A DNA stretch of 32,000 nucleotides from Candidatus Velamenicoccus archaeovorus. GTDB lineage: Bacteria > Omnitrophota > Gorgyraeia > Velamenicoccales > Velamenicoccaceae. Position 1 is the stretch's first letter. Each line of letters opens with the position of its first letter. The notes below the pieces were generated by a model. It was not told the DNA's origin. It worked only from the letters and a program-made list of their open reading frames with translations, and searched no databases. The stretch covers positions 1 through 32,000 of the forward strand of contig NZ_CP019384.1 in assembly GCF_004102945.1 (NCBI RefSeq), in the 5' to 3' direction. The position numbers were made by a program, and so were the translations under genes. This document shows positions 2,586 through 29,582 of this stretch, piece by piece.

Positions 2586-5295
<2,710 letters not shown>

Positions 5296-7054: not shown

Positions 7055-9502
<2,448 letters not shown>

Positions 9503-9745: not shown

Positions 9746-9823
9746 GGCCCCATCGTCTAGCCTGGTCCAGGACGTGTGGTTCTCAGCCATAAGACACCGG
9801 TTCAAATCCGGTTGGGGCTACCA
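9746..9823 (+). tRNA. tRNA-Glu (anticodon CUC) with encoded CCA
   Basis: Hand-folded cloverleaf. Acceptor GGCCCCA/TGGGGCT. D-arm GTCT..AGGAC, typical of tRNA-Glu. Anticodon stem TGTGG/CCATA with loop TTCTCAG (anticodon CTC). T-arm ACCGG-TTCAAAT-CCGGT. Discriminator A followed by CCA. Confidence 0.85.
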
Positions 9824-9967: not shown

Positions 9968-10072
9968 GTTTTCATCTGGTAACCATTTCTCCTCACAGTG
10001 CCTAGCCTATCCGCAGCTATTTTTTACTTGTTTCCCAAGATGAGGCGTGTTAGACTAATATAGTTTACATAC

Positions 10073-10135
10073 GTTAACAACGGAACATTAGTTAACTTTT
10101 GTTAACCAAGGTTAATTTAGTTAACATGTGTTAAT
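10073..10135. promoter_or_regulatory. Array of six GTTAAC/GTTAAT palindromic half-sites upstream of the HTH gene (candidate operator)
   Basis: GTTAAC at 10073, 10091, 10101 and 10120. GTTAAT at 10111 and 10130. The last five are spaced 9-10 bp apart, about one helical turn. The array ends ~30 nt before the ATG at 10168. Confidence 0.55.
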
Positions 10136-10167
10136 GTTGTCTTCATAACTTATTTAAGGGGTGAAAG

Positions 10168-10437
10168 ATGGAGGAGAAAGAATACTTTAGCATAGCTCAG
10201 GCGGCAAAGATATTAAAAATAAGCAGGATAGCTGTTTACAAAAAAGTAAAAAAGGGACAACTGCCAGCCATAAGAATCGGTAAGATTTATGCGGTTCCGA
10301 AAGAGGACATTATACGGAAGGTAAGAGGAATTAAGGGGCGTTCTTTGAAACCAGAAGAAAAAGCCAAAATAAAAATGGCCGTAAATAAAACGTTAAGAGA
10401 ATATGGGGATGTGTTAAAGAGGCTGGGAGAAGAGTAG
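10168..10437 (+). CDS. Excisionase/MerR-type helix-turn-helix DNA-binding protein (putative antitoxin/regulator)
   Basis: 89 aa. FSIAQAAKILKISRIAVYKKVKKGQLPAIRIGKIYAVPKEDI matches the HTH_17 excisionase-family pattern. Its stop overlaps the downstream GTG start (TAGTG), suggesting translational coupling. GGGGTGAAAG RBS. Confidence 0.8.
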   Translation: MEEKEYFSIAQAAKILKISRIAVYKKVKKGQLPAIRIGKIYAVPKEDIIRKVRGIKGRSLKPEEKAKIKMAVNKTLREYGDVLKRLGEE

Positions 10438-10859
10438 TGCATAGAATTACAATCAAAGAAGTTGAGGAGATAGCATTTCTTATCGCTCAAGAGAAGTTTT
10501 CTTTTAATGAGTCAATACCTGCTTTTACGACGAGGTTCCCTAGCGTTTTGGAAAGTTGCCTCGAAACCCCTTTTCAGACCTTCGACGGAAAGGAGCTTTA
10601 TCCTACCTTTGCTGCAAAACTTAGTATGCTGTTTTATTTAATGAACAAAAATCATCCCTTTCAAAATGGCAATAAAAGAATAGCTATGACGACGCTGTTT
10701 TTTGCTTTGTATGAAGCGAAAAAATGGATAAAGGTGGATACGCAAACCCTCTATAATTTTGCAGTATGGGTAGCTGAAAGTCCGCCAAACGCAAAAGAGG
10801 AAGTGACGGAGTACATAGAGAAATTTATAAAAACTCACATGGCTCCTCTTCAAGAGTAA
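10437..10859 (+). CDS. doc: Doc / Fic-family death-on-curing toxin
   Basis: 140 aa. Contains the Fic/Doc active-site motif HPFQNGNKRIAM (H-x-F-x-[DN]-[AG]-N-K-R). Size and position behind a small DNA-binding protein fit a type II TA module. Confidence 0.85.
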   Translation: MHRITIKEVEEIAFLIAQEKFSFNESIPAFTTRFPSVLESCLETPFQTFDGKELYPTFAAKLSMLFYLMNKNHPFQNGNKRIAMTTLFFALYEAKKWIKVDTQTLYNFAVWVAESPPNAKEEVTEYIEKFIKTHMAPLQE

Positions 10860-11238
10860 ATTGGGGTATTATATAGAAACGCTGATGATTTTGGCTGGGG
10901 TTGGATTTTTATTGATTTGCGCAGAGACTTGTGTTATAAAATATCTAAATAACATCAGGTATTTTATAACTTCTTATTCATGAAGGTGTTTTAAAAACCA
11001 TGTGGCGTCTGTCTTGGCCTGCCCCGCCTTCGGCAGGGCAAGGCCGGACAGGCAGGTCCGACTGTTTGGCCCGTCGCCAGAGGCGACGAGGTCTCACTTT
11101 CAGCGGACGCGGCCGCGAGGTCGCCGTTGCGGCGAATAAGCCGCAACACGTTTAGCGACGCCCGCCGAGAGGGTGAGGCGGGCCGAGGTCGAAGCGTTTC
11201 CTTGCTTTTTTATTGAGGTTAAGCGAGACGGAACGTGT

Positions 11239-11345: not shown

Positions 11346-11399
11346 CGGCCCGGTGGCACGGAAGTGCCGAAGACAAAGTTTAGGTGTCGAGAAAAAAGG
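11346..11399 (+). repeat. 54-bp perfect direct repeat, copy 2 (forms the leader and RBS of the parvulin gene)
   Basis: Identical to 11239-11292. It runs into AAGGAG, 6 nt upstream of the ATG at 11408. Confidence 0.95.
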
Positions 11400-11407
11400 A
11401 GAAAGCT

Positions 11408-12352
11408 ATGCTGAGAAAACCGGGGGTTCTTCTGCTGGTTTTGGCAACGGCGTTTATGTTCGCCGGTTGCGACCAGTTGAAGGGAATGTTCCAGACTTCG
11501 CTTGGATCAACAGGATCAACAAAAACGGCCGCGCCCGCGGAGACCGGCCAGCATGCGGCCCAGCCCGTTTATGGAACGGTTCTTGCCAAAGTGAACGGCG
11601 ATACCATCACCCTGGAGAGCTTTGACGAAAAGGTCAAAAATCTTCAGGCGCTTTCTCCTGAAATCAAGATCAATACGCCCGAGGCGAAGAAGAGCTATCT
11701 TAACGACCTCATCACCCAGGAATTGATTTATCAAGAGGCCAAAGCGAGGGGCATCGAAAAACAAAAGGACGTTAAGGACGCCGTCGAGGAATTCAAGAAG
11801 GGGGTTATGGCCCGGCAGCTGATCATGGATGAGACGAAGGGCATTACCGTCGAGCCATCCGAGATCGAGGCGTTCTACAACCAGTACAAGCAGGCGTTTG
11901 CTTCAGCCAGGCAGGTTCGCGCCAGGGAGATTGTCGTGCCGACGGAGCAGGCGGCCAAGGATATCCTGATTCAGCTTTTGCAGGGCGGCGATTTTGCAGC
12001 GCTCGCCAAGGAACGCTCGATCGATGCGTCCGCATCGAAGGGCGGAGACATGGGGATCATCAATCCCGCCGAGCAGTTCGATAAGTTTAATGAGGTGATC
12101 GCTACGCTTGATGCCGGCGCGGTGAGCCCGATCTTCAAGGGGCCGAAAGGGTATTATATCGTCAAGGTGGAAGAAGTCAAAGGCGGTCAGATCCCGCAAT
12201 TGACGGATACGCTTCCCGACACAAACATGACGGTCTATGATCAGATCAAGAACGGCCTCTTGCAGCAGAAGCAGGCTCAACGCATCCAGGATCTGACGGA
12301 CAGGTTGAGGCGCGAAGGCAAGATAGAGATCAAGGAAGAGCTCCTGCGTTAA
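11408..12352 (+). CDS. Parvulin-type (PpiC/SurA/PrsA-like) peptidyl-prolyl isomerase lipoprotein
   Basis: ORF 11384-12352. I prefer the ATG at 11408 (AAGGAG upstream). Lipoprotein signal MLRKPGVLLLVLATAFMFAGC. Parvulin domain VRAREIVVPTEQAAKDILIQLLQGGDFAALAKERSID...GGDMG...GPKGYYIVKVE. Confidence 0.85.
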   Translation: MLRKPGVLLLVLATAFMFAGCDQLKGMFQTSLGSTGSTKTAAPAETGQHAAQPVYGTVLAKVNGDTITLESFDEKVKNLQALSPEIKINTPEAKKSYLNDLITQELIYQEAKARGIEKQKDVKDAVEEFKKGVMARQLIMDETKGITVEPSEIEAFYNQYKQAFASARQVRAREIVVPTEQAAKDILIQLLQGGDFAALAKERSIDASASKGGDMGIINPAEQFDKFNEVIATLDAGAVSPIFKGPKGYYIVKVEEVKGGQIPQLTDTLPDTNMTVYDQIKNGLLQQKQAQRIQDLTDRLRREGKIEIKEELLR

Positions 12353-12441
12353 TCGAGACGCAGAAATCCCCGGGACCGGAAATGCGGGCGGAGGGCTTGC
12401 TCGTGTTGACGGCCGCAGGGTTTCATGAGGAGATATTCCGC

Positions 12442-13326
12442 GTGGACAAAAGAAAACTGAGCATTATTCTTGCGGTCGTTCTGGCGCTTGTGGCCGTGGT
12501 GATGGTGAGGAACTATATCTCCCAGACCGAAAAGAAATACATTAAAGAGGAAAAGAAGGCGTATGTGCTGGTCGCCACCCAACCCATCGCCGCGGGCGCC
12601 ACGATCGACGAATCCATGATGAAGATGGAGGCGATCCCCGAAAAGTACGTCCAGCCCAATGCGGTCAATTCGCCCAGCCTTGCCGCCGGGCGGCGCGCAG
12701 CCGCAGCCATCGCTCCCGGCGAGCAGATCATGACGACAAAATTGACCTTGGCCGTCAAAGACACGAGCCTGGCCATGCGCACGCCGCAGGGCAAGCGCGC
12801 CATCACGATTACGGTGCCGTTTTTGTCGGCCGTCGGCGGCAAGATCCGCCCCGGCGATTACGTGGACGTGATCGGCACGTTCCCGTATAACGCGCAGGTC
12901 GACGGACGCACAGTCACCGAGATGGTGAGCGTCACTTTGTTTCAGAACGTGCTTGTGTTGGGCGTAGAGGGTGGTATGGGCATCCCGGCACAGAGAGGAC
13001 AGGCCGCCACCGCTCCCACAGACTTGATCATTATGCTGGCATTGTCGCCGCGGGAAGCGGCGCTCTTATCGTTTGCGCTCGAACAAAAGGCTTCTCTGAG
13101 GATGGTTTTGAGGCCGCCTTTGGAGACGGCGATCGAACCTGTGCCGCCCGTTGAGGTCAACGCGCTGTGGCAATATGTTTTCAGTAATCTCGGCCAGGAG
13201 TTCATGGCGACCAAAGAAGAGTCGTCGTCCATGAAGCCCCAAGAGAAGAAGCAGGAACCGCCGGCGCCCCCGACCGTCGAGATCTACCGGGGGACTGAAA
13301 AATCGAACATGATCATGAACAAGTAG
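12442..13326 (+). CDS. cpaB: Flp pilus assembly protein CpaB/RcpC
   Basis: ORF 12382-13326. Likely GTG start at 12442 (GAGGAG at 12427-12432). N-terminal TM helix LSIILAVVLALVAVVMV. SAF-like segment YVLVATQPIAAGATIDESMM. RcpC/CpaB segment RAITITVPFLSAVGGKIRPGDYVDVIGTF. Confidence 0.85.
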   Translation: MDKRKLSIILAVVLALVAVVMVRNYISQTEKKYIKEEKKAYVLVATQPIAAGATIDESMMKMEAIPEKYVQPNAVNSPSLAAGRRAAAAIAPGEQIMTTKLTLAVKDTSLAMRTPQGKRAITITVPFLSAVGGKIRPGDYVDVIGTFPYNAQVDGRTVTEMVSVTLFQNVLVLGVEGGMGIPAQRGQAATAPTDLIIMLALSPREAALLSFALEQKASLRMVLRPPLETAIEPVPPVEVNALWQYVFSNLGQEFMATKEESSSMKPQEKKQEPPAPPTVEIYRGTEKSNMIMNK

Positions 13327-13332
13327 CCTTTG

Positions 13333-14925
13333 ATGAAAAGAGCCAAAAGCGTCGCACTTCTTTTATCGGCGGCTGTTGCGTTTCTGGCAGGGATGCTGTG
13401 CGTTCCTCGCCAAGTGCGCAGTGAATTTTTGTTCAACGATTACGATATGGCCAGACAGCTGGATATCGTGATCGGGGAATCCAAGGTCGTGGAAGTCGCC
13501 AACCCCAAGAGGATCGCGATCGGTGATCCGAAGATCGCCGATGTCGTCGGCGCCAGCCGGACGGAAATCCTCGTCTCCGCCAAGGCGGCAGGAGAAACGA
13601 ACCTCCAGATATGGGACGATTACGGCCAGCGTGAAGTGCTCGTGCGGGTTTTTGAGGAAGACCTTGGCAGGCTCAAGAAGCGGCTGGAAGACCTCTTCGC
13701 GACGGCAGGGCTGCGCAGCGTCTATTTCCAGGTGGGAGAGCAGGAGAGGAAGGTTTTTGTGCTGGGAGAAGTCCCCTTGCGGAAAAAAGATGTCGTGACC
13801 CAGCTCCTTGAGAGTTTCCGCAACCGGATCATCGACCTCGTGACATTCAAAGAGGACAATCCTTTGGTTGAGATCGATGTTCAGGTTATGGAGATCGCCA
13901 AGACCGCCATTGATAAGCTCGGCATCAACTGGTCGCAGTCCCTGGTGTTCAATGAGCAACCGACGCCGGCGCCACACACGCTGATCCGTCAAGCAGCAGA
14001 CCTCATTAAGGCGGTTGGTCAGTCGCAGTTCGACCGCACGGCCCTCACCGCGACCCTCAATATTCTTGAACAGGACAATCTGGCGCGGACCCTGGCGCGG
14101 CCCAAGCTTGTGGCCCTGAGCGGCAAGGAGGCCAAAATCCTCGTCGGAGGTTCTGTCCCGATCTTGTCGAGCGTCAGCGTCTCCAGCGGTACGACAACGA
14201 CGGCCGTGGACTATGTCGAGTACGGCATCAAGCTCAATATCAAACCCGAAGTGAAGGAGACCGGCGACATCCAGTGCAGCCTGGAGGTCGAGATCAAGAC
14301 GATCGACTCATCCACTCAGCTGACGGTCCAGACAGGGCAGTCCATTTCGACGACGACGCCGGGATTCAAGACGCGCAATGTCACCTCCGAATTGTATCTG
14401 AAGAACAACGAGACGATCTTTTTGGCCGGCCTCATCGACAATGAGCAGACGAACAATCTCCAGCAGGTCCCCGGCTTGGGGAACCTGCCGATCTTCGGGG
14501 CGCTCTTCCGCTCCAAAAACTTCCAGGTGGGCGATACGGAACTCGTGGTTTCCCTGACACCCAAGGTTGTCCGTTACGGTGACATGCTGCAGGATGTCGA
14601 GTCGGCCAGCAAGGGAAAGGCGGCTCCGGAAGAAGAGCCCGCCGATGCCTACGTGCGCACCATCCAGGAGACGATCCTTAAAAATGTTTCTTATCCTGTC
14701 GAGGCGCAGCGTGCGAACCTTTCGGGCGAGGTGGTGTTGAGCCTTCACTTGCTTTCCAGCGGCCAGCTCGTTGGCGTCATGGTGAGCCAGTCGTCGGGCC
14801 ACAAGCTTCTGGATAAGGCCGCTGTTTATACGGTCAAGAGGCTGGCGCCCTATCCGGCGTTTCCCAAAGGGCTTCTTCTCAAGGAGATATGGGTTGAAGT
14901 GCCTATCGCCTATCAAATGAATTAG
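13333..14925 (+). CDS. cpaC: Tad secretin CpaC/RcpA with a C-terminal TonB_C-like domain
   Basis: 530 aa. Signal peptide. Pilus-formation N-domain (IVIGESKVVEVANPKRIAIGDPKIADV...TNLQIWDD). Secretin core (LARPKLVALSGKEAKILVGG...VPGLGNLPIFGALFRS...ELVVSLTPKVV). The last ~90 aa read VSYPVEAQRANLSGEVVLSLHLLSSGQLVGVMVSQSSGHKLLDKAAVYTVKRLAPYPAFP, a TonB C-terminal pattern. Confidence 0.88.
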   Translation: MKRAKSVALLLSAAVAFLAGMLCVPRQVRSEFLFNDYDMARQLDIVIGESKVVEVANPKRIAIGDPKIADVVGASRTEILVSAKAAGETNLQIWDDYGQREVLVRVFEEDLGRLKKRLEDLFATAGLRSVYFQVGEQERKVFVLGEVPLRKKDVVTQLLESFRNRIIDLVTFKEDNPLVEIDVQVMEIAKTAIDKLGINWSQSLVFNEQPTPAPHTLIRQAADLIKAVGQSQFDRTALTATLNILEQDNLARTLARPKLVALSGKEAKILVGGSVPILSSVSVSSGTTTTAVDYVEYGIKLNIKPEVKETGDIQCSLEVEIKTIDSSTQLTVQTGQSISTTTPGFKTRNVTSELYLKNNETIFLAGLIDNEQTNNLQQVPGLGNLPIFGALFRSKNFQVGDTELVVSLTPKVVRYGDMLQDVESASKGKAAPEEEPADAYVRTIQETILKNVSYPVEAQRANLSGEVVLSLHLLSSGQLVGVMVSQSSGHKLLDKAAVYTVKRLAPYPAFPKGLLLKEIWVEVPIAYQMN

Positions 14926-14946
14926 GGAATATATCCGAACCAAGCC

Positions 14947-17169
14947 ATGGCAGACAATACTCCTACTCCTGCTCCCGCTGCTCCTGCGCCCAACCTGGGC
15001 AACATCATCACCATCTTCAGCACCAAGGGGGGTGTCGGCAAGACGCTTTTGGCGGTCAACCTCGCGATCGCCCTCGCCCAGGAAGGCAAGCGCGTGGCCC
15101 TGTTGGATATGGACCTCCAGGCGGTCCAGGACATGGCGCGCATGATCGACGCCACCCCCCAGTATTCCATATTCGACATTGTCTCCATCCTTGAGAAGAT
15201 CGAGCAGGCGGGCAACATCAAGAATTATATGACCCTCGTCAGCTCCGCCGGCATTGATTTTCTTCCGGCCATCACCCGGCCCAAACAGTCGCCGCACATC
15301 ACCGGCGAGCGCATCGGCAAGATTGTTTCGATGCTGACGCCGTTCTATGATTTTATCATCGTGGACGGCGGCCGCGCCTTTACGGACAGCCTCATCCATA
15401 TCTTCAACCGTTCGAACCTGATCCTTTTTATCGTGACGCCGGACATCCTCTCGGTGTACGAGACGCGCTGGGGGCTGGATGTGTTGCAGTCCCTGCACTT
15501 CCCGCTCAAGATGATCAAGCTCCTTTTGAATCGTGCGGAGAGCAAGTCCGGTCTCTCATGGCAGGAAGTCAAGCTTGCGCTCCCCTGCGAGATCATCGCC
15601 AGCGTTCCGTCGGACGGACGCGTCGTCGGCCTGGCCTTGAACCGCGGCGTCCCGGTCGTCATTGACAGTCCCGCCAGCCGCGTCAGCGTCGGAATCAAAA
15701 AATTCGCCCAGGAGCTGATCGCCAACCAGTCCCTTTATATTGCTCACAAGGAGGTCCAGGACCTGCGTTCCATCAAAAAAGAAGAGGTGCCCGTCGCCGG
15801 CACCTTCTGGGATATGATGGGGCTTTCGGACAAGGTCAAGTGGGTCAAGCCCATCGAACAGGAAGACGAGATCCTCCGTCTCAAAAGACGCATCCATGCG
15901 CGCCTGATCGAAGAACTTGACTTGAAGCGCCTGGACATGGAATTGATCAATAATCCTAAGAAGGCCAAGGAGCTGAGGGAAAAAGCGGAAAAGATCATCA
16001 CCAATCTTCTGGCGGACGAGACAGGCGCTTTTCTTTCGAGCCTCGAGGTCAGGGAAAAGCTGGTCAAAGAGCTCGCCGATGAAGCCCTCGGCTTGGGGCC
16101 TCTGGAGGAACTTCTGCGGGACGGGGATATTTCCGACATCATGGTGAACAACAAGGACCAGGTGTATATCGAAAAACACGGGCGTGTCGAGTTGACGAGC
16201 AAGAAGTTTATTTCCGACGACCAGGTGAAGGTCGTCATCGAGCGCATCATCGCGCCCCTGGGCCGGCGCATCGACGAATCCGTGCCTATGGTGGATGCGC
16301 GTCTTCCCGACGGCTCGCGTGTCAACGCGATCATCCCGCCGTTGTCTTTGACGGGTCCGACCCTGACGATCAGAAAGTTCGCGCGCGAACATTTCACGAT
16401 CGAAGATCTCATCGCGCGTTTCGGGAGCCTGGACCGCGACATCGCGGATTTCCTGGCTGCCTGTGTTCTTTCCAGAAAGAACATCATCGTTTCGGGCGGA
16501 ACAGGTTCCGGGAAAACGACATTTCTCAACATCCTCTCCGATTTTATTCCCTCGAACGAGCGCATCGTCACTATCGAAGACGCAGCGGAATTGAAGCTGA
16601 ACCAGGAGCATTGGGTGCGCCTGGAATCCAGGCCTCCCAACATCGAAGGCAAGGGCGCTATCTCGATCCGCGACCTTTTCCGTAACTGCCTGCGTATGCG
16701 GCCCGACCGGATCGTCATCGGCGAGTGCCGCGGCGGCGAGGCGCTAGACATGCTCCAGGCCATGAATACGGGCCATGACGGTTCCTTGACGACCATCCAC
16801 GCCAATTCCACCCGCGATGTGCTGACCCGTCTGGATTCCATGATCCTGATGAGCGGCGTGGAGCTTCCCATCCGCGCCATCCGCGAGATGACGGCCTCCG
16901 CCATCGATATCGTCATCCAGACAGCCAGGTTGTCCGACGGGACCAGAAAGATCACGCAGGTGACGGAGGTTGCCGGCATGGACGATGAGCTCCATATCAG
17001 GTTTGCCGACATTTTCCAGTTCAAACAGTTGTCGATCGACCGGGACACGGGAAAGGTCATCGGCGAATTCACGGCCACGGGGAACCTCCCCAGTTTTTAC
17101 GAAGAGCTCATCACCCGCGGCATCCATCTCTCCTCAGATATCTTCCAGGTGAAGAATATTCAGAAATGA
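14947..17169 (+). CDS. cpaF: Fused CpaE/TadZ-like ParA/MinD ATPase and CpaF/TadA secretion ATPase
   Basis: 740 aa in one frame. The N-terminal ~270 aa carry the deviant Walker A IFSTKGGVGKTLLAVNLA of MinD/ParA/CpaE. The C-terminal ~450 aa carry LGPLEELLRDGDISDIMVN, Walker A VSGGTGSGKTTFLN, IVTIEDAAEL and RPDRIVIGECRGGEA, as in CpaF/TadA (T2SSE family). Confidence 0.9.
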   Translation: MADNTPTPAPAAPAPNLGNIITIFSTKGGVGKTLLAVNLAIALAQEGKRVALLDMDLQAVQDMARMIDATPQYSIFDIVSILEKIEQAGNIKNYMTLVSSAGIDFLPAITRPKQSPHITGERIGKIVSMLTPFYDFIIVDGGRAFTDSLIHIFNRSNLILFIVTPDILSVYETRWGLDVLQSLHFPLKMIKLLLNRAESKSGLSWQEVKLALPCEIIASVPSDGRVVGLALNRGVPVVIDSPASRVSVGIKKFAQELIANQSLYIAHKEVQDLRSIKKEEVPVAGTFWDMMGLSDKVKWVKPIEQEDEILRLKRRIHARLIEELDLKRLDMELINNPKKAKELREKAEKIITNLLADETGAFLSSLEVREKLVKELADEALGLGPLEELLRDGDISDIMVNNKDQVYIEKHGRVELTSKKFISDDQVKVVIERIIAPLGRRIDESVPMVDARLPDGSRVNAIIPPLSLTGPTLTIRKFAREHFTIEDLIARFGSLDRDIADFLAACVLSRKNIIVSGGTGSGKTTFLNILSDFIPSNERIVTIEDAAELKLNQEHWVRLESRPPNIEGKGAISIRDLFRNCLRMRPDRIVIGECRGGEALDMLQAMNTGHDGSLTTIHANSTRDVLTRLDSMILMSGVELPIRAIREMTASAIDIVIQTARLSDGTRKITQVTEVAGMDDELHIRFADIFQFKQLSIDRDTGKVIGEFTATGNLPSFYEELITRGIHLSSDIFQVKNIQK

Positions 17170-17495
17170 AGCTTGGGAGATCCGCCGTCAAACCTTGCGC
17201 GTCGCGGTCTCTTGAAGCGCCCCCAGAATCCGTTGTTTATCCCGGCTCGTTCCTGCCTTCCGAGCGAGAAAACTCCCCCTCTCGCGTCTTTCCATGCAGC
17301 CCCTGTCTTTCTATTTGTTGCGCCTCCGTGTCCGGGGTATCTTTCCGGACATAGCCGCCCCGTGGCGACCAATCCGCAGAGAAGGGTTGACGGGGATGGC
17401 AAAAGATCTCTGTCTGCGCAACATTTTCTTACCTCCTTTTGTTTGAACAAGTCCTCGCGCCAGCCGCTTGTTTTCCAGTAGATACCAATAACGGC

Positions 17496-17525
17496 TTGCC
17501 TGACCAAGTCGTCATTTGATATAAT
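17496..17525 (+). promoter_or_regulatory. Candidate sigma70-type promoter with extended -10 inside the non-coding spacer
   Basis: TTGCCT (17496-17501), an 18-nt spacer, then TG-a-TATAAT (TG 17517-17518, TATAAT 17520-17525). Confidence 0.4.
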
Positions 17526-17740
17526 GCTGCGAGCTTCTGTCCGGATGAGGCCAGGATTTTTCTTGGTCGGTTTGGATATCAAAAAGACCAAAAACTCTCA
17601 GGTTCTGCTGGAATGAGCGCCGGGTTTGGCAGATGGTCGCCACAACCCGGCCAAGCCAGGTTTTCAAGGAGGCAGGGCCGGTTGTACCAAAAATGGGCCT
17701 GGTGTTAAGGAGTCACCCCGCCAGAGGCACTCGTGGAGCC

Positions 17741-18166
17741 CCACGGCTTTACAGCCGTGGCCCCTTTTCCTGCCGGGCTTCCGCCGTGGGGCGGAATCCC
17801 GCCCGAATGCCATTCATCCTCACCTTGACAGGTGGGGCATTCTGGGTGCGGGGTAAAATTAACCTGGCCTGCCCAAGGCAGGCCGAGCAAGCTGCCGCAG
17901 AAAGCGGCACACCGCCACAGAAGGTGGCGCACTTGCCGTCCGAATGAGGCAAGGTGCGGCCCATCTGCCTCAGAAAGGTGGCATACCCGCCATTCCGGTT
18001 TGGCGGGGTGCGATGAGGCCGGGTGATCGGAGCCATCCCGCCAGAGGCGGAAAGCCACTAAAAACAGACTCCTTGCTTAAACGCTTGTTAATTTTACTCG
18101 TATACGCCAGAGGCACTCGTAAAATTAATGTCGCAAGCTTCGGAGTCATCCCGCCAGAGGCGGGAT
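17741..18166. repeat. Dense array of at least nine short GC-rich hairpins (candidate structured RNA or REP-like array)
   Basis: Perfect stems: 17741-17760 (8 bp), 17779-17796 (7 bp), 17866-17884 (8 bp), 17893-17909 (6 bp, loop AGAAA), 17913-17929 (6 bp, loop AGAAG), 17932-17953 (6 bp), 17986-18007 (7 bp), 18038-18050 (5 bp, loop AGA) and 18148-18166 (8 bp, loop AGA). No convincing ORF on either strand. Confidence 0.75.
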
Positions 18167-18178
18167 GAGGAGGGACAA

Positions 18179-18544
18179 ATGGCCGCAGAGGCCTTGTACA
18201 AGGCAATCGTTCAAGAATCCGGGAAGATGCTGGCAGACAAGATTACTATCGCCGATTCATTTGGCGCCAGGGCCAAAGGGCTTCTTGGAAAAATTGGGCT
18301 GGAGGATGGTCGGGGCCTTCTGATCAGGCCGTGTAGCTCTATACACATGTTTTTCATGAAATTCCCAATAGATGTCCTATTTCTGGCAAAAGATGGTAGA
18401 ATTATCAAGATAGTTAAAGGATTGAAGCCGTGGAGACTAAGCGGATGTTGGTTTGGGTGTCATATGGTTTTAGAGCTTAAAGAAGGAGTTTTAGATATTA
18501 ACGAAGATTTTGATAAAAAACACATAAAATTCGTCAAAATATAA
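18179..18544 (+). CDS. DUF192 (COG1430-like) domain protein
   Basis: ORF 18128-18544. I prefer the ATG at 18179 (GAGGAGGG at 18167-18174). The pattern ADSFGARAKGLLG...GLLIRPCSSIHMFFMKFPIDVLFLAKDGRIIKI...MVLELKEG matches DUF192. Confidence 0.72.
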   Translation: MAAEALYKAIVQESGKMLADKITIADSFGARAKGLLGKIGLEDGRGLLIRPCSSIHMFFMKFPIDVLFLAKDGRIIKIVKGLKPWRLSGCWFGCHMVLELKEGVLDINEDFDKKHIKFVKI

Positions 18545-18605
18545 TGTCCAATATATAAAATCATTTTCTATAACACAATGCAAAACATTAAATAACAGAA
18601 AATAA

Positions 18606-20177
18606 ATGTCCAAATTAGCTAAATTCAACCAAAATATCAAACGATTTATATTGGAGACTCGAAAGAGAAACTCTGATTATGGAGTTCGAAAGCTCGCTGA
18701 TCTTGCTTTTGGAAAGTTTGGAGTGAAAATCAGCAAATCAACTGTTAATAATATTGTCAAAAATGCCAAATTGAGCAAGCCGGTCGGCCGCAGTATATTG
18801 AAAACTTATAGATACTCCGGGGATTTGTACGGCGCAGGGTATGTTTTTTTTGTAGGCGCCATGCGTCTTTTGGGCATAGGGGACAAAGTTGCGGCCATTA
18901 CGTCGGAAATGGGGCTCTGTAAAGAGATCAGGCCGGAAACAATCCCGTCTCTTGTCGAAGGCTGGCTTCTGTCCAAGGCGGTTTATAATGTGCCTCTTGA
19001 AAAAATTGCAGGGTATTCAAAAAAAGAGCTATGGGATATCATAGGCTACAAAATTTCAAAGGCAAATTTTGAGACTTTTCTTGCCCATTTTGAATTCTCG
19101 CAAGATATTGGAAATAAATTAGTTATGTATTTTTTAAATTCCATAAAGGACGTCAGTTTTATTAAATTTACCCTTTCGGATGGAGGCGTTTTTCATGTTG
19201 ACGCAAAAGGTTGCTATGTCTGGACCGCCAAAAAGACCCCAGTTAATTTTTCTTCAAATCTTTTATTTTTAGATAGTTATATAAATTCTTTCGTGGAAGG
19301 AAATGAACCCTTCTTTGTCCTAAACGCTAATCCGGAGGGTAGTACTCAAGCTAAAGAGCTCCAGGATTTTATTCTGGCCATGGAAGGTTCTGTTGCTGAA
19401 AAGAGGATCCGCAGAATTGATCTTTTTGGTCCCGATGGACGGCCTTGCCGTGAAATTTCGTTCGTCCTGCCCCTCCGCAGAAGGTTTGTGATTGGTGCTT
19501 CTCCGGCTTCAGATACGGAGAAAATAACGGCCCCCGCCCCTAAAAGTTTCGAGTCCAATTTTATCTGTGAGCCTTTGGGCAAGCTGTTTTTTGTCTCAGA
19601 GGAAAGTCATAAAGTATCACAACATATTGGAAATAAAGATGTTATGATAAGAAAAATCCATCTTAAATCGTCAGATCCTTCTTTGAGGATTTCGCTTTTG
19701 ACGAATCTTGATCCCAAGGATTGGACCGCGGTTGAAATAGCCGAGGGTTATCTGCGGAGATTCGGAAATTTCCAAGAATACTTATTGCGGGCTTCTGAGT
19801 GGGCAAAAAATCCTGGGTATGCAGATGAATTTGTGTCTGCCGATCGCTTTTTGGCGCATTCTTTGAGGCTGAAAGAGTCGAAAGATGCCGAGCATTTATT
19901 CGCCTGTCTCGTCGAGGTTTGCGATCTTTTCGCTAAAATGAGCTTCCTGCCCCCTTTGTGCAGACAGTGGAGTTTGTTGAAAACCAGGGAGTTGATTTAT
20001 AAGCAACCCGGTGCTGTGCAGAGGGACACGGCCTGCGATGTTTTATTTAACATATTGAAAACAAAAGAGTTAGAGAAAATACGTGTTTTAGAGCACGCTT
20101 CGCTCATATTTAACAGCCTCCCTGTGAATGAACGATCCGGCCGCAAGTTGTGGATTTTTCTGACAGCCGCAGTTTGA
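18606..20177 (+). CDS. Hypothetical 523-aa protein with N-terminal HTH; possibly transposase-derived
   Basis: Long uninterrupted ORF in a low-GC segment. The N-terminus RKRNSDYGVRKLADLAFGKFGVKISKSTVNNIVKNAKL looks like a transposase-type HTH. The C-terminal WTAVEIAEGYLRRFGNFQEYLL resembles the Y-x2-R-x3-E region of IS4-like DDE transposases, but the E is out of register. No terminal inverted repeats seen. Confidence 0.6.
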   Translation: MSKLAKFNQNIKRFILETRKRNSDYGVRKLADLAFGKFGVKISKSTVNNIVKNAKLSKPVGRSILKTYRYSGDLYGAGYVFFVGAMRLLGIGDKVAAITSEMGLCKEIRPETIPSLVEGWLLSKAVYNVPLEKIAGYSKKELWDIIGYKISKANFETFLAHFEFSQDIGNKLVMYFLNSIKDVSFIKFTLSDGGVFHVDAKGCYVWTAKKTPVNFSSNLLFLDSYINSFVEGNEPFFVLNANPEGSTQAKELQDFILAMEGSVAEKRIRRIDLFGPDGRPCREISFVLPLRRRFVIGASPASDTEKITAPAPKSFESNFICEPLGKLFFVSEESHKVSQHIGNKDVMIRKIHLKSSDPSLRISLLTNLDPKDWTAVEIAEGYLRRFGNFQEYLLRASEWAKNPGYADEFVSADRFLAHSLRLKESKDAEHLFACLVEVCDLFAKMSFLPPLCRQWSLLKTRELIYKQPGAVQRDTACDVLFNILKTKELEKIRVLEHASLIFNSLPVNERSGRKLWIFLTAAV

Positions 20178-20281
20178 ATCCCCTGGAAGTCCCCAGAAAT
20201 TCTCACAGAACTTTTTATGTTACCCCATGTAAAAAACCCAGTTACGTAAGAAAACGCTTTCTTTTTTGGGGTAAAAATTTG

Positions 20282-20311
20282 TTGACATCATTATAATATA
20301 TATGATATAGT
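20282..20311 (+). promoter_or_regulatory. Candidate sigma70-type promoter for the flp gene array
   Basis: TTGACA (20282-20287), an 18-nt spacer, then TG-a-TATAGT (TATAGT 20306-20311), in a very AT-rich stretch ~190 nt upstream of the first flp start. Confidence 0.5.
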
Positions 20312-20429
20312 TTTGGTGCAAGATCGGTATCGAATCGACCACGGAAAAAAGATGAAAAACGCCACGGAAACAAAAAACATTTTTGGGATTTTTTGTCCCT
20401 ATTGGGTCGTTCGGCAGATTTTTCCGGCA

Positions 20430-20489
20430 GCCGAATCGTTCAATGCTGATTTTTTGAAAGAAAAGCATGAGCGATTCGGCAATTTTTTT
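20430..20489 (+). terminator. Leader stem-loop plus T7 tract upstream of flp1 (candidate attenuator)
   Basis: GCCGAATCG (20430-20438) pairs perfectly with CGATTCGGC (20472-20480), with an inner ATGCT/AGCAT stem. It is followed by aaTTTTTTTc (T-run 20483-20489). An upstream TTCGGC (20410-20415) could alternatively pair with GCCGAA (20430-20435). Confidence 0.45.
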
Positions 20490-20501
20490 CTAGGGTTCGT
20501 A

Positions 20502-20750
20502 ATGAGTTTAAAAAAGTTCTTAAAAAGATCCGTTTGGACAATAAGCGGCCAGTCGATCATTGAATATTTCGTCCTGCTGGTTGCGATAGCCGCGTTGACG
20601 ATTGTGGGGAGCTCGGCTTTTTATGCCAAGATGCAGCGCTCATCGGGGTACGTGTTGAATTATTCCGTAGGCCAGATGAAGCAGAGCAATCTCAACACCT
20701 TTTCACTGGGGGGAGTGACTCCCGGCGGATGGACAAACACAACGATTTGA
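20502..20750 (+). CDS. flp: Flp/Fap-type prepilin-like protein, paralog 1
   Basis: 82 aa from the ATG at 20502. Basic leader MSLKKFLKRSVWTIS, then G-QSII-EY and the hydrophobic helix FVLLVAIAALTIVG (the G/x4-EY Flp motif). Confidence 0.8.
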   Translation: MSLKKFLKRSVWTISGQSIIEYFVLLVAIAALTIVGSSAFYAKMQRSSGYVLNYSVGQMKQSNLNTFSLGGVTPGGWTNTTI

Positions 20751-20760
20751 GGGGCGGGAC

Positions 20761-20913: not shown

Positions 20914-20915
20914 CC

Positions 20916-20932
20916 TGCCGCCTGCGGCGGCA
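20916..20932 (+). terminator. Short GC hairpin after flp2
   Basis: TGCCGCC-tgc-GGCGGCA (7-bp stem), followed by aaggggTTTcc. The U-tract is weak. Confidence 0.3.
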
Positions 20933-21370: not shown

Positions 21371-21463
21371 TCCCCGTGTCAACAGGGGGTCTCGCCCCGC
21401 AGGGTGGACCAGAGAGGGCCCGCGGGGATCGAAATCCGAAGGAAGGAAGGGGGTGAAAGAGAC

Positions 21464-21715
21464 ATGAGGAAGGTGTTGAGCAAAGTAGGCCAGAGCACGT
21501 TGGAATATGTTATCGTCTTGACAGCGATCGTGGCAGCGATTCTTTTTGCGGCGACACAGTTCATCAAGCCGGGCGTCAACCGTATCTATGACGAGACGGG
21601 CACGAAGTTGAACGATACAGCCAGTGTCTTCGCCAATAAGATCGGGATCAGCCTGAACGCCGTGGGCGGAACGACGGGCGGCACGACGGGCGGCACGACA
21701 GGGGTCGGCGTATAA
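21464..21715 (+). CDS. flp: Flp/Fap-type prepilin-like protein, paralog 5, with (GGTT)3 C-terminal tail
   Basis: 83 aa from the ATG at 21464 (GGAAGGGGGTG upstream). MRKVLSKVG-QSTL-EY followed by VIVLTAIVAAILFAATQFIKP. C-terminus GGTTGGTTGGTTGVGV. Confidence 0.8.
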   Translation: MRKVLSKVGQSTLEYVIVLTAIVAAILFAATQFIKPGVNRIYDETGTKLNDTASVFANKIGISLNAVGGTTGGTTGGTTGVGV

Positions 21716-21757
21716 TCGCGGTCCAACAGATCGCCGCGTTGAAGGAGGTGAAAAAGG

Positions 21758-22114
21758 ATGTTCAGATGGTTGAATTCGAAGAGGGGTCAGAATACGGCTG
21801 AGTACGCGATCCTCATCGGCGTTATCGTGGCGGCTGCTATCGCGATGCAGATCTATATCCGCCGCGGGATGCAGGCCAGGATCAAGGACGCTGTTGATTT
21901 CACGCAAACAGCGGACGACGATGCCGGCAACGGGTTCTTCAGCAACATGACGCAGTACGAACCGTATTATTATCAGACGAACTTTGAGACGAGCCAGAGC
22001 GGAACGCAGTCAGAAGAGCTGCAGTCCGGCGGCGGCGTCATCAGGACGTCTATCACGGACACAACGCAAAGAACCGGGAACCAGACCTATGGCAACTACA
22101 TGGAAGCCAATTAG
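21758..22114 (+). CDS. Long Flp-like prepilin/minor-pilin-like protein, paralog 6
   Basis: 118 aa. AAGGAGGTG RBS. MFRWLNSKRG-QNTA-EY followed by AILIGVIVAAAIAMQIYIRRGMQARIKD, then a polar ~75-aa tail. Confidence 0.8.
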   Translation: MFRWLNSKRGQNTAEYAILIGVIVAAAIAMQIYIRRGMQARIKDAVDFTQTADDDAGNGFFSNMTQYEPYYYQTNFETSQSGTQSEELQSGGGVIRTSITDTTQRTGNQTYGNYMEAN

Positions 22115-22153
22115 GGGTTTCATGTTTTGCGCGCGAAAAGGAGGTGACGTTAC

Positions 22154-22471
22154 ATGCGCAGGTGGTTGAAAGAAAATGGTCAAAGCACCCTCGAGTACGC
22201 GGTTTTAATAGTGGTCATAATTGCCGCCCTTATCGCGATGCAGGTGTACCTGAAGCGCGGTATCCAGGGCAGGATGAGAGAGTCAACTGACCAGATCGGC
22301 GAGCAGTTTTCGCCGGGTTACACCGTTTCAAACAGAACCACCCAGACATACTCCAACAGCCGAGAAGAGAACACCGGTTGGTCGACATCGACGGAAATCT
22401 ACAACCAGTGGCAGAACAGAGCGGGCTGGGAGAATGTGATGAACGCCGAACAGGAATACTGGGGCGTGTAG
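22154..22471 (+). CDS. Long Flp-like prepilin/minor-pilin-like protein, paralog 7
   Basis: 105 aa. AAAGGAGGTG RBS. MRRWLKENG-QSTL-EY followed by AVLIVVIIAALIAMQVYLKRGIQGRMRE. Confidence 0.82.
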   Translation: MRRWLKENGQSTLEYAVLIVVIIAALIAMQVYLKRGIQGRMRESTDQIGEQFSPGYTVSNRTTQTYSNSREENTGWSTSTEIYNQWQNRAGWENVMNAEQEYWGV

Positions 22472-22490
22472 AGAGGATCGGCGGGCATGG

Positions 22491-22518
22491 CCCGTTAGAG
22501 AGATCATTCTCTAACGGG
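22491..22518 (+). terminator. Perfect 11-bp stem-loop between flp7 and flp8
   Basis: CCCGTTAGAGA (22491-22501), loop gatcat, TCTCTAACGGG (22508-22518), followed by cTTTg. Begins 20 nt after the flp7 stop. Confidence 0.5.
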
Positions 22519-22544
22519 CTTTGCCCCGCGAAAGGCAGGATGCG

Positions 22545-22934
22545 ATGGGCGCGAAAAGATCGAACACAACAGCGGGTTTGACGGGCGGGCAAAGGTCTTG
22601 CGCTTTTCCGGCGCTGTCGCGCAGGGGCCAGCAGATTGCAGAGTATGCCCTGGTCATGGCGGCGCTCGCCTCGGCGCTGTTGATGATGTATGTCTATACC
22701 AAGCGTGGGATCCAGTCGACCATCAAGGACCTGACGGACCATGAGATCGGCTGGCAGAACGACAGCGTGCCGATCCTGGCCGCCGGCGTTCATCAGAATA
22801 CGACAGCGGCGATGACGACGAAGGCGCAGGATGCGGTGCGCGTCAGGAAAGACTCCGGGCTCGGGGCCCAGTATGATTTTGCGAGCGCTTCGAGATCGAC
22901 CGGGGAAAGCAACGTGACGTTCAACGAGCTTTAG
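22545..22934 (+). CDS. Long Flp-like prepilin/minor-pilin-like protein, paralog 8
   Basis: ORF opens at TTG 22521; the ATG at 22545 is more plausible. The long leader ends in SRRG-QQIA-EY, followed by ALVMAALASALLMMYVYTKRGIQSTIKD. Confidence 0.75.
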   Translation: MGAKRSNTTAGLTGGQRSCAFPALSRRGQQIAEYALVMAALASALLMMYVYTKRGIQSTIKDLTDHEIGWQNDSVPILAAGVHQNTTAAMTTKAQDAVRVRKDSGLGAQYDFASASRSTGESNVTFNEL

Positions 22935-22936
22935 GG

Positions 22937-23338
22937 ATGGCTGCGATGAGAGACAGACGGCATTTTATTTTATGTTTTTCCGGAGATCCGCTGGGCGCCC
23001 GGCGCGGCCAGACCGTTATCGAGACGGCTGTTTTGGTGACCATCATCATTTTTGCTTTTATCGCGATGCAGGTGTACCTGAAGCGCGGGATCCAGGGCCG
23101 CCTGAGAGGGACGATTGACGGCATCGGCGAACAATATGATCCCGACCAGACGACGTCGGATTACAACCTGGTCCACGAGAGCGACGTGACGACGACCAGC
23201 GAGTCCAGCGAAGAGATGTATGTCGATCCGATGTCGTATTCGGGCCAGTACCAGAACAGGCTCATCACGATGGTGCACGTCGAGACGCACTACGATAATT
23301 CGTTCAAGAACGGCTTTGAATATGTGGGGGCGCCGTAA
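22937..23338 (+). CDS. Long Flp-like prepilin/minor-pilin-like protein, paralog 9 (E-T variant)
   Basis: 133 aa. ARRG-QTVI-ET followed by AVLVTIIIFAFIAMQVYLKRGIQGRLRG. Thr replaces the Tyr of the EY pair. Shares a 38/39-nt tract with paralog 7. Confidence 0.75.
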   Translation: MAAMRDRRHFILCFSGDPLGARRGQTVIETAVLVTIIIFAFIAMQVYLKRGIQGRLRGTIDGIGEQYDPDQTTSDYNLVHESDVTTTSESSEEMYVDPMSYSGQYQNRLITMVHVETHYDNSFKNGFEYVGAP

Positions 23339-27819: not shown

Positions 27820-28671
27820 ATGATCATGAAAGGGTTGATCTTCATAGCGCTGTTTGCGTCGGTGACGCTCCTGGGATATCAACTCGTCCCCGTGGCCTGG
27901 GACAAGTTTTATACTTGGCGCGTTCACGGTGTCGAGGTGCAGAGGGTGCGTCTCAAAGAGATGTTCCTGGACATGGACCCGCAGAAGCTCTTTTTGCTCA
28001 ATGTGATTTCGCCGACGATCTTCTGCGTCGTCGGCCTGGCGGTTTTTAAGAGCCTCACGGGTGCCCTCATCGGCTTGGCGGTCGGTTTTGCGATACCGGC
28101 GTTGATCGTCAAGAACCTGATCTTTGCCAGAAAGACCAGGTTTGCCGTCCAGATCACCGACGGCTTGATGATCCTCTCGAGCTGCTTGAAGGGCGGCTTG
28201 AGCCTGTTGCAGTCCATCGAAGCGCTCGTGGAGGAACTTCCGGCCCCCATCAGCCAGGAGTTCGGGCTGATCTTGAGAGAGAACAAGATGGGTATTCCGC
28301 TGGAAGAGTCTTTTGAGAATTTAAATAAGAGGATGCCGTCCGAAGAGTTGAACCTGTTGACGACGGCGATCCTGGTTGCGCGCGAGACCGGCGGCGACAT
28401 CACGCTTTTGTTCGGCCGCCTGATCGACACGATCCGCGCGAAGTCCAAGCTGGGCGAGAACATCAGGACCTTGAGCATGCAGGGAAAGATCCAGGGCATC
28501 GTCATGTCGATGCTGCCGATCGCGTTTGCGATCCTGGTCGTCTCGTTCAACCCGAATTATTTCGACATCATGCTGTCGAGCCCCGTGGGCCGGGGCCTGA
28601 TGGTGTATGCGGTGATTTCCGAGTGCGTCGGGATGTACATGATCCGGATATTTTCCCGGATCAACTTTTAG
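27820..28671 (+). CDS. tadB: Tad pilus inner-membrane platform protein TadB (T2SSF family)
   Basis: 283 aa. N-terminal TM helix. Cytoplasmic T2SSF-type domain (LPAPISQEFGLILRENKMGIPLEESFENLNKRMPSEELNLLTTAILVARETGGD). C-terminal TM helices. Confidence 0.9.
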   Translation: MIMKGLIFIALFASVTLLGYQLVPVAWDKFYTWRVHGVEVQRVRLKEMFLDMDPQKLFLLNVISPTIFCVVGLAVFKSLTGALIGLAVGFAIPALIVKNLIFARKTRFAVQITDGLMILSSCLKGGLSLLQSIEALVEELPAPISQEFGLILRENKMGIPLEESFENLNKRMPSEELNLLTTAILVARETGGDITLLFGRLIDTIRAKSKLGENIRTLSMQGKIQGIVMSMLPIAFAILVVSFNPNYFDIMLSSPVGRGLMVYAVISECVGMYMIRIFSRINF

Positions 28672-28679
28672 AGGTCGCC

Positions 28680-29582
28680 ATGGTTGTTTATTTATCACAA
28701 ATATTCTTGTTCGCGGGGATCTTCCTGATCTTCATGAATTTCTTTTTGTGGTTCTTTGCGGCCCATGAGCTCAGGAAGGTCATCAAGAGACGTTTGCGTT
28801 ACGAGGTCAACCCGACCGACAGGAAGTCCATTTTTGTGCGGGTCTTTGACTTGTTCGCGCCGCTGAACTACTTTGTCGTGCGCCGGCTGGTCAAGCGCGA
28901 GAACCTGGAAAACAAACTTTTCGGCGCGCGCGTGGGCATGACGCCCGAGCAGTTCTTCGGCGCCAAGGAATTTATGGCGATCTTCGCGTTGTTGCTGGCG
29001 ATCGGGTTTTTGCCGGCCGAAGACGTCGTCAAGGTCGTGGTCGCCGGCATCGCTGGCTTCTTCCTGCCGGATCTGTGGCTGGACATGAAGCTCAAACAGC
29101 GCCGCTCCGCCGTCGTGCGCACGTTGCCGGATACGGTGGACCTCTTGAGTTTGTGCGTGGACGCCGGACTCGATTTTATCGCGGCCTCGCGCTGGATCGT
29201 TGAAAAGTCAAGGTCGACCGCGTTCATCGAAGAATTGTCGCTCATGCTTCACGAGATCAAAGTCGGCAAGCCGCGCCGCGAAGCGCTCAAAGACCTGTCG
29301 CGCCGGATCAATGCGCCGGACGTCACGGCGTTCGCGCGCACGCTGATCCAGGCCGATAGGATGGGCACGCCGATTGCCGAAGCCTTGGCGATCCTCTCCG
29401 AGGACGTGCGCGAGAGGTTTTTCAGGCGCGCCGAACGCACGGCCCTGCAGGCGCCGATGAAGATGCTGATCCCGCTGATCTTCTTCATCCTGCCTGTGGT
29501 CGGCGTGATCGTGGGCGGGCCTATTGCGATTCAGTTCATGAACGGAAGCCTCCTGGGAGGCATGGGTGCGGGGGTCAAATAA
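28680..29582 (+). CDS. tadC: Tad pilus inner-membrane platform protein TadC (T2SSF family)
   Basis: ORF 28623-29582. I prefer the ATG at 28680, just after the tadB stop. T2SSF domain (LPDTVDLLSLCVDAGLDFIAA...LSRRINAPDVTAFARTLIQADRMGTPIAEAL). Flanking TM helices. Confidence 0.9.
   Translation: MVVYLSQIFLFAGIFLIFMNFFLWFFAAHELRKVIKRRLRYEVNPTDRKSIFVRVFDLFAPLNYFVVRRLVKRENLENKLFGARVGMTPEQFFGAKEFMAIFALLLAIGFLPAEDVVKVVVAGIAGFFLPDLWLDMKLKQRRSAVVRTLPDTVDLLSLCVDAGLDFIAASRWIVEKSRSTAFIEELSLMLHEIKVGKPRREALKDLSRRINAPDVTAFARTLIQADRMGTPIAEALAILSEDVRERFFRRAERTALQAPMKMLIPLIFFILPVVGVIVGGPIAIQFMNGSLLGGMGAGVK

Follow-up and report, generated by a model that had tools for sequence, protein, structure and literature searches.

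Results

A Tad secretin that ends in a TonB_C domain

This analysis concerns the secretin gene of the Tad (Flp) pilus of Candidatus Velamenicoccus archaeovorus, an archaea-killing member of the Omnitrophota, and the domain that forms the C-terminus of its product. The window is the whole stretch of DNA that was analysed, the 32,000 nucleotides from position 1 to 32,000 of contig NZ_CP019384.1 (assembly GCF_004102945.1), and all coordinates refer to it. It is the part of the LiM chromosome next to the replication origin. A complete, expressed Tad system was assigned to 12382-29832 of CP019384.1 by Seymour et al. (PMC10066038). The secretin gene and its parts are arranged as follows.

13330..14925, + strand: Tad (Flp) pilus secretin with a C-terminal TonB_C domain, 531 aa from a TTG start, stop codon at 14923-14925
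13330..13449, + strand: signal peptide and mature N-terminus, residues 1-40, weakly conserved
13450..13638, + strand: T2SS-T3SS_pil_N domain, residues 41-103 (PF13629, E = 9.8e-16), beta-rich in the AlphaFold2 model with a predicted local distance difference test score (pLDDT) of ~90
13660..13920, + strand: second periplasmic alpha/beta domain, residues ~111-197, from AlphaFold2 secondary structure (pLDDT 85-89), conserved in the family
14065..14574, + strand: secretin beta-barrel core, residues 246-415 (PF00263, E = 3.7e-41)
14578..14649, + strand: acidic flexible linker, residues 417-440, low pLDDT at 428-432
14650..14922, + strand: TonB_C / TolA-III-fold domain, residues 441-531, defined by profile, fold and constant length

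Judged by its sequence, the protein up to residue ~416 is an ordinary RcpA/CpaC secretin. The secretin core matches PDB entries 8jvb (E = 1.1e-40) and 8odn, the latter being RcpA (E = 3.1e-32), and every testable feature of the Tad secretin family is present, among them a pil_N domain in place of N0/AMIN, except the C-terminal S-domain. The second periplasmic domain is putatively N1-like, and homology to 8ODN predicts a 13-14-mer outer-membrane channel. The full-length AlphaFold2 model (46 homologs; mean pLDDT 75.8) consists of the secretin parts, a low-confidence stretch and then residues 437-531 at a pLDDT of ~90. Foldseek retrieves secretins for this model, including RcpA 8odn, together with TonB C-terminal domains. 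The intervening linker is YGDMLQDVESASKGKAAPEEEPADA, an acidic segment of 25 aa with 2 Pro.

The protein starts with a cleavable-type signal peptide, directly after which come the secretin domains, and there is no N-terminal transmembrane anchor of the TonB type. Without that membrane anchor the secretin cannot itself be an energy transducer; it belongs to the TonB_C domain family but is not a TonB protein. By inspection, all of the 46 homologs begin with a basic-hydrophobic leader, and the mean pairwise identity of residues 1-40 is 0.20. A lipoprotein (liposecretin) identity was considered and rejected since Cys24 is found only in the closest relatives among these homologs, and its G-M-L-C context is not a canonical lipobox. 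Pfam and NCBIfam scans detected no AMIN, LysM or OmpA family in the secretin or in the other window open reading frames (ORFs) scanned. The database copy of the protein (P0001) is 100% identical, carries the name 'MAG: TonB family protein [Candidatus Velamenicoccus archaeovorus]' and has 530 aa, a length that fits a start one codon later at the ATG at 13333.

The C-terminal domain is a genuine TonB_C

An earlier sequence-only reading of this DNA had proposed that the last ~90 aa of the secretin form a TonB_C domain, and the peptide that it quoted is found exactly in the 531-aa translation. Profile searches bear the assignment out, with significant matches to both PF00263 and PF03544 in the one protein. 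Pfam TonB_C (PF03544) matches residues 452-529 with E = 1.8e-16 and 60.8 bits against a gathering cut-off of 24.6, and TonB_2 matches residues 439-518 with E = 1.9e-07. The 92-aa C-terminal piece gives E = 3.1e-17 when searched alone. With the NCBIfam model TIGR01352 (tonB_Cterm) the score is 61.7 bits (cut-off 27.1), and there is a weak match to TIGR02794 (TolA). As a single sequence the domain matches the Helicobacter pylori TonB C-terminal domain (6sly/5lw8) with E = 5e-5; the family profile of the domain reaches E = 1e-13 and extends to HasB, the TonB proteins of Neisseria, Pseudomonas and Escherichia coli, and TolA.

Structure prediction was in agreement. The AlphaFold2 model of the isolated domain has a pLDDT of 93.8 and a predicted template-modelling score (pTM) of 0.81, and its topology is helix-helix-strand-strand-helix-strand. 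The top 23 Foldseek neighbours in the PDB are all TonB, HasB, FusB or TolA-III C-terminal domains. The best of them is H. pylori TonB 179-285 (6sly; TMq 0.77), and Neisseria TonB (9dc4) superposes with a root-mean-square deviation (rmsd) in the range 1.5-1.8 Å. Several neighbours are chains solved with TonB-box or TolB peptides (2gsk, 2grx, 6i97, 9dc4 and 6s3w). Six positions are invariant in the domain (Y441, G478, S489, D495, F511 and P525) and hold down to ~30% identity, and the YP motif, the SSG..LD motif and the PI.Y C-terminal strand are present as in TonB. Profile, sequence and fold agree, and the C-terminal domain is thereby confirmed as a genuine TonB_C, far beyond chance. The match that the earlier reading had predicted for residues ~440-530 is significant in profile and structure, with a small adjustment of the boundary: its start at 14647 is codon 440, and the domain, which begins YVRTIQ, opens at residue 441 (nucleotide 14650).

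The fusion recurs throughout the Omnitrophota set

A protein-cluster search was used to determine how far the architecture extends. All of the closest clusters (94/94) carry PF00263 together with PF03544, down to 29% identity. Past these 94 (P0095 onward) the E-value jumps from 1e-70 to 1e-41 and the hits are ordinary CpaC proteins with PF13629 and PF00263 only. A search seeded with a divergent member of the family added 120 clusters, of which 120/120 have PF00263 and PF03544, and the informative organism names among them are all Omnitrophota or Omnitrophica. When genomes were scanned, each GTDB species being represented once, 298 relatives came up, and the best 80 of the 298 were examined as loci consisting of the gene and 10 kb on either side. 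The match ends within 3 residues of the C-terminus (residues 528-531) in 79/80 of these species loci, the exception (L020) being cut by a contig end. Taken together, the fusion is retained in more than 200 protein clusters and in 80/80 of the inspected genomes. The 80 loci are labelled Omnitrophota or have placeholder labels on contigs with the same synteny. Records titled 'uncultured Planctomycetia' and 'Deltaproteobacteria' show the full Omnitrophota synteny at ~70% identity, and we read these labels as placeholders or the result of mis-binning, although this is not proven. The fusion thus appears to be a phylum-wide, conserved feature of Omnitrophota tad loci, with taxonomic exclusivity judged from record titles. 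The sequence-only reading had held that canonical RcpA/CpaC secretins have no such domain and had called for the same fusion to be sought in other secretins. The fusion was found throughout the Omnitrophota set, and the first point holds: the ordinary CpaC hits beyond that set lack TonB_C, and the solved RcpA has a short coil tail (PMC10499894).

The domain is conserved and under selection. Across the 46 homologs TonB_C keeps a length of 89-93 aa, whereas the linker can be anything between 23 and 64 aa and resists alignment. Mean pairwise identity falls from 0.52 in the secretin core through 0.48 in TonB_C and 0.47 in pilN to 0.17 in the linker. The dN/dS values of close relatives are 0.01-0.06 (secretin core), 0.05-0.10 (TonB_C) and 0.08-0.31 (linker); TonB_C is under purifying selection. 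These data also dispose of the idea that the fusion arose by frameshift or misassembly from a secretin gene and a small TonB-like gene, or that the domain is a decaying, functionless remnant. An odd architecture and a misleading database name are all that speak for it, whereas the same fused ORF recurs in hundreds of independent assemblies and the low dN/dS, the six invariant positions and the confident AlphaFold2 model speak against it. A gene-fusion artefact is ruled out by the recurrence and the purifying selection, and we give the artefact-or-relic explanation virtually no weight.

TonB_C is not always present as a single copy. Of the 150 best matches to the domain in a 50%-identity representative library, 45 are full secretins with one TonB_C and 10 are secretins with two in tandem (P0122, P0125, P0129-P0131, P0134, P0135, P0137, P0138 and P0143; total lengths 643-1091 aa). 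A double-TonB_C gene occupies 307-2238 of a distant related locus (L081) of the same type. A cluster look-up of the double-domain variants returned only names without information on the host, namely 'bacterium' and, for one partial contig, 'Hydrothermarchaeota'. Longer linkers rich in Pro, Lys and Glu occur in some distant homologs. Proteins with multiple TonB_C repeats, of BlaR1-M56/TonB_C and FG-GAP/TonB_C architecture, also score high against the domain, most of them because they have several repeats each. One five-repeat protein (P0121) has a PYPFPF motif that resembles the secretin-borne TonB_C subtype.

The surrounding tad locus

The secretin lies in a cluster with the order lipoprotein peptidyl-prolyl isomerase (PPIase), RcpC/CpaB, secretin::TonB_C, TadZ::TadA, DUF192, large unknown protein and Flp pilins, and this order is kept from ~90% to ~33% identity. 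Its other features are listed here.

11384..12352, + strand: lipoprotein PPIase, Pfam Rotamase_2/3 (parvulin) and SurA_N, first gene of the cluster
12382..13326, + strand: RcpC/CpaB, periplasmic alignment-ring protein (PF16976, E = 1.4e-18; TIGR03177, E = 1.8e-45), in 76/80 related loci
14947..17169, + strand: TadZ/CpaE-like ParA fused to TadA/CpaF ATPase (PF01656/PF13614 at residues 18-166, PF00437 at 381-659), in 79/80 loci
18128-18544, + strand: DUF192 (COG1430) protein, downstream of tadZ::tadA in 48 related loci and adjacent in most
18606-20177, + strand: 523-aa ORF within a low-GC stretch at 18001-21000 (41-46% GC)
21404..23338, + strand: five tandem Flp-type pilin/pseudopilin paralogs with G/xxxEY-type N-termini and weak Class_IIIsignal/DUF4244 matches
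27099-27596, + strand: 165-aa predicted lipoprotein with an LTGC lipobox and no family match, just before tadB
27820..29582, + strand: TadB and TadC platform proteins (PF00482 T2SSF, E = 3.7e-17 and 3.1e-15)

The PPIase is not a canonical Tad component. Its gene lies directly upstream of rcpC in every related locus that extends far enough in that direction (69/69), and the lipobox Cys is present in nearly all related loci. It may be a dedicated secretin chaperone and is a candidate assembly factor. The 165-aa lipoprotein before tadB is, from its sequence, another candidate outer-membrane accessory factor. RcpC of Pseudomonas aeruginosa contacts the equivalent of the pil_N domain of the secretin (PMC12307814).

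Accessory and TonB-system genes were sought at the same loci. No TadD (tetratricopeptide repeat, TPR) or CpaD/RcpB family was detected in the window tad locus (Pfam and NCBIfam) or in L081-L083, three distant related loci for which Pfam calls already existed, in keeping with the sequence-only reading, which had seen neither RcpB nor TadD in the window. No second TonB_C ORF was found in the window or within 10 kb of the gene in the 80 loci, and no ExbB/ExbD or TonB-dependent receptor is among the Pfam-scanned ORFs and genes of the window and the three distant loci. A second TonB_C protein or ExbBD encoded nearby was therefore rejected as a partner. A 2026 preprint likewise reports no canonical TonB-dependent receptor/sus architecture flanking the Omnitrophota giant-gene loci that it studied (10.64898/2026.06.07.730766).

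Several further observations concern the neighbourhood. TadZ::TadA is one 740-aa protein with its ParA/MinD part at residues ~18-270, where two genes are normal. Of the loci with this gene (79/80), nearly all give tblastn matches that run across both halves, as do L081-L083. The ~960 nt between tadZ::tadA and DUF192 (17170-18127) hold two local ORFs with no tblastn match in the 80 loci, and the gap has no Rfam match. Its predicted RNA fold is more stable than that of shuffled sequences (z = -4.6), and short direct repeats are found in it: CGCCAGAGGCACTCGT occurs twice, and (TCGGAG)CATCCCGCCAGAGGCGG has two to three copies. DUF192 follows tadZ::tadA directly in distant relatives. The stretch with the 523-aa ORF looks inserted, yet its position is kept in 38 related loci at 20-82% identity, and L081-L083 have genes of 687-827 aa in its place. 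This ORF has no Pfam or NCBIfam family beyond a weak N-terminal helix-turn-helix-like match and no signal peptide.

The window opens with dnaA (1-1326), dnaN (1460-2572) and gyrB (2875-5295), followed by an unknown 273-aa ORF (5824-6645), gyrA (7055-9502) and a tRNA (9746-9820), so that the Tad locus adjoins the replication-origin gene set. The arrangement from gyrA through the PPIase to tad is retained in closer relatives. A Fic/DOC-family ORF (10437-10859, + strand) lies between the tRNA and the PPIase gene in a stretch of 36% GC (10001-11000); it occurs in only 2/80 related loci and may thus be a small inserted element.

The phylum-wide conservation, the tandem TonB_C members, the upstream lipoprotein PPIase and the inability to act as TonB had no place in the sequence-only reading.

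Discussion

A proposed built-in docking module for the secretin

Secretins need help in reaching the outer membrane, assembling there and staying fixed in it, and this help comes from separate proteins such as TadD, CpaD, PilF, TsaP and the GspS-type pilotins. The TonB_C/TolA-III fold is best known for catching a short extended peptide by strand addition. P. aeruginosa RcpA has an unstructured C-terminal S-domain whose last four residues bind the pilotin TadD, and the 13-14-mer does not assemble without this contact (PMC10499894). The Caulobacter lipoprotein CpaD is a 12-mer that surrounds the CpaC barrel as a spoke-like belt and may link it to peptidoglycan (PMC13170226). The suggestion in the sequence-only reading that the domain replaces a pilotin or anchoring factor, or couples the channel to another envelope component, fits this anatomy, in which TonB_C, on its flexible tether, stands in the sequence at the place of the pilotin-binding S-domain.

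Our preferred reading, to which we give about an even chance, is that TonB_C is a built-in docking or anchoring module that replaces a separate pilotin or belt protein. It starts from direct observations, namely the identity and fold of the domain, its conserved fusion to the secretin under purifying selection, and a locus that lacks TadD and CpaD; from these we infer the position of the domain under the outer membrane, its stoichiometry, its binding mode and its role. Each of the ~13-14 ring subunits would dangle one TonB_C domain on a 23-64 aa tether beneath the outer membrane. By beta-strand addition it would hold an extended peptide of an envelope partner, in the way that TonB binds the TonB box and TolA the N-terminus of TolB. 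Docking of this kind would do the work of the absent pilotin or belt protein by targeting, stabilising or bracing the secretin. The partner may be the lipoprotein PPIase of the same operon, a different lipoprotein or outer-membrane protein, or peptidoglycan, which is weighed separately below.

Several points weigh against this docking role. The analysis found no partner and no assignable TonB-box-like motif. The absence of TadD, CpaD and a pilotin covers the window and 10 kb on either side of the gene in related loci only. The comparative data would look no different if the domain bound peptidoglycan or itself. The PPIase has Asp or Glu at position +2, after the lipid-modified Cys, in most genomes, which by the E. 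coli sorting rule means inner-membrane retention and makes it weaker as a pilotin-like partner; no conserved box is seen in the tether of the PPIase.

Direct binding of TonB_C to the wall, which would fix the ring to the sacculus and resist the force of pilus retraction, is the role proposed for the OmpA-like part of Caulobacter CpaD or the AMIN domains of PilQ. This alternative is favoured by the affinity for peptidoglycan that work on TonB has proposed for its C-terminal domain. A flexible tether keeps the domain at the barrel's periphery, and the protein and locus have no OmpA, AMIN or LysM, so some other anchor may be needed. Tad secretins elsewhere recruit CpaD as a putative peptidoglycan-binding belt (PMC13170226). 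Nevertheless, the PDB neighbours are all TonB or TolA C-terminal domains, several solved with protein or peptide ligands and none peptidoglycan-binding. The 25-aa linker limits the reach of the domain in V. archaeovorus, and no peptidoglycan-binding motif is known for the secretin-borne TonB_C subfamily. We consider a peptidoglycan anchor unlikely. The domains might instead contact one another, or another part of the secretin such as the mature N-terminus of a neighbour, to build an outer collar that drives or stabilises oligomerisation and makes the secretin self-piloting. The tandem double-TonB_C variants in the same locus type would suit a collar-building module, no pilotin gene is found at the locus, and TonB C-terminal fragments form dimers in crystals (one of the neighbours is 1u07). 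Such dimers are, however, generally seen as construct-dependent, a fixed collar has no need of a long and variable tether, and the mature N-terminus is so poorly conserved that a conserved intramolecular 'box' is not evident. We regard self-association as quite improbable.

A link to the proton-motive force would be the most novel alternative. An ExbD/TolR-type stator would grip the TonB_C ring, or TonB_C would compete for the TonB boxes of outer-membrane transporters, which would couple channel gating or local transport to the Tad machine. In this ultra-small predator the opening or bracing of the Tad channel, or the passage of cargo through it, would then be controlled mechanically from the periplasm or inner membrane by the stator or a TonB-box-like partner. 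Such a handshake would be a secretin-TonB hybrid mechanism not known in any type IV filament machine. The TonB system is the sole one with an experimentally established mechanism for this domain family, and two features typical of TonB, the beta3 edge strand and the YP motif, are preserved in the fold. Against it stand the lack of the TonB N-terminal anchor and the fact that no exbB, exbD, tolQ, tolR or TonB-dependent receptor gene and no second TonB_C ORF was seen in the window or within 10 kb of the gene in related loci; the preprint's finding of no canonical receptor/sus genes applies to the flanks of the giant-gene loci only (10.64898/2026.06.07.730766). Both the motor link and the mechanical control that it would allow are highly improbable. 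A final alternative has TonB_C bind a folded effector, a pilin or a prey protein at the periplasmic mouth of the channel, much as FusB binds ferredoxin. The FusB C-terminal domain and its complex with ferredoxin (7zc8, 9hi3) are among the structural neighbours, and the Tad system of V. archaeovorus has been linked to a predatory lifestyle (PMC10066038). The secretin C-terminus is expected outside the barrel rather than in its lumen, from the geometry of RcpA (PMC10499894), and no comparative signal supports a receptor. The chance of a cargo or pilus receptor is slimmer still.

Annotation and significance

A literature search turned up no account of any secretin with a TonB_C domain, and the word 'TonB' is absent from the text of PMC10066038, PMC10499894, PMC8460266 (Kil), PMC13170226 and PMC6668835 (on the evolution of type IV filaments). 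The preprint mentions 'TonB-domain content', meaning TonB C-terminal hits, beside Omnitrophota pilus genes and does not recognise a secretin (10.64898/2026.06.07.730766). These hits may be members of the Omnitrophota secretin::TonB_C family. NCBI-derived records use the name 'TonB family protein' because TIGR01352 is the only NCBIfam model that passes its cut-off. The name hides a Tad secretin, and as a result the 'TonB content' of Omnitrophota genome surveys can be misread. The present assignment corrects this annotation problem for the Omnitrophota Tad secretins.

TonB_C domains on non-TonB proteins and secretins with anchoring add-ons were already known. The fusion of the two is a new, phylum-wide architecture; it is not a new principle unless the coupling to a motor proves true. 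Rather than relying on separate helpers, a phylum of mostly ultra-small, host-dependent bacteria appears to have built a TonB-type docking domain into its Tad secretin. This arrangement offers a natural, compact model for secretin anchoring and extends what the TonB_C fold is known to be used for to a setting other than energy transduction. Further features of these loci are the joining of TadZ and TadA in one protein and the additional lipoprotein PPIase. A central role in predation or parasitism has been proposed for the Tad system of Omnitrophota (PMC10066038).

Comparison with known systems

The Velamenicoccus secretin shares its pilN domain and secretin core with RcpA and CpaC (RcpA-TadD, 8ODN; CpaC-CpaD), and its locus provides the same partners, CpaB/RcpC, TadZ, TadA/CpaF, TadB, TadC and Flp pilins. 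The difference is at the C-terminus. The S-domain of RcpA is gripped by the TPR lipoprotein TadD, whereas the Velamenicoccus tail is a linker followed by a folded 91-aa TonB_C. CpaC is belted by the lipoprotein CpaD, and the Velamenicoccus locus has neither a CpaD nor a TadD gene.

The domain has the same fold as the TonB C-terminal domains (6SLY/5LW8, 2GSK/2GRX and 9DC4), with a TMq of 0.77 and an rmsd of 1.8-2.8 Å. Unlike TonB, the secretin has no transmembrane anchor and no ExbBD neighbourhood, and the V. archaeovorus linker is 25 aa, acidic and without a proline-rich rod. TonB is an inner-membrane transducer, whereas the domain of the secretin would hang from an outer-membrane channel. TolA domain III has the same superfold and binds the TolB N-terminal peptide by strand addition (6s3w among the neighbours); its scores are below those of TonB, and TolA is anchored in the inner membrane.

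TonB_C also serves as a portable periplasmic module outside energy transduction in the BlaR1-type M56 peptidase-TonB_C repeat proteins and the FG-GAP-TonB_C proteins. A similar case is the trans-envelope machine of the predator Myxococcus, in which TonB-CTD-like domains of GltG and GltJ would act as docking modules, binding GltD/GltF according to structure prediction (PMC11761067). None of these proteins is a secretin, and their TonB_C domains are tethered to inner-membrane proteins. Among secretins, PilQ with its AMIN domains, the liposecretins (BfpB) and GspD with its S-domain and pilotin all have an attached element that aids anchoring or assembly. The AMIN domains of PilQ are N-terminal and so is the lipid anchor of the liposecretins, whereas the element of the Velamenicoccus secretin is a C-terminal TonB_C domain.

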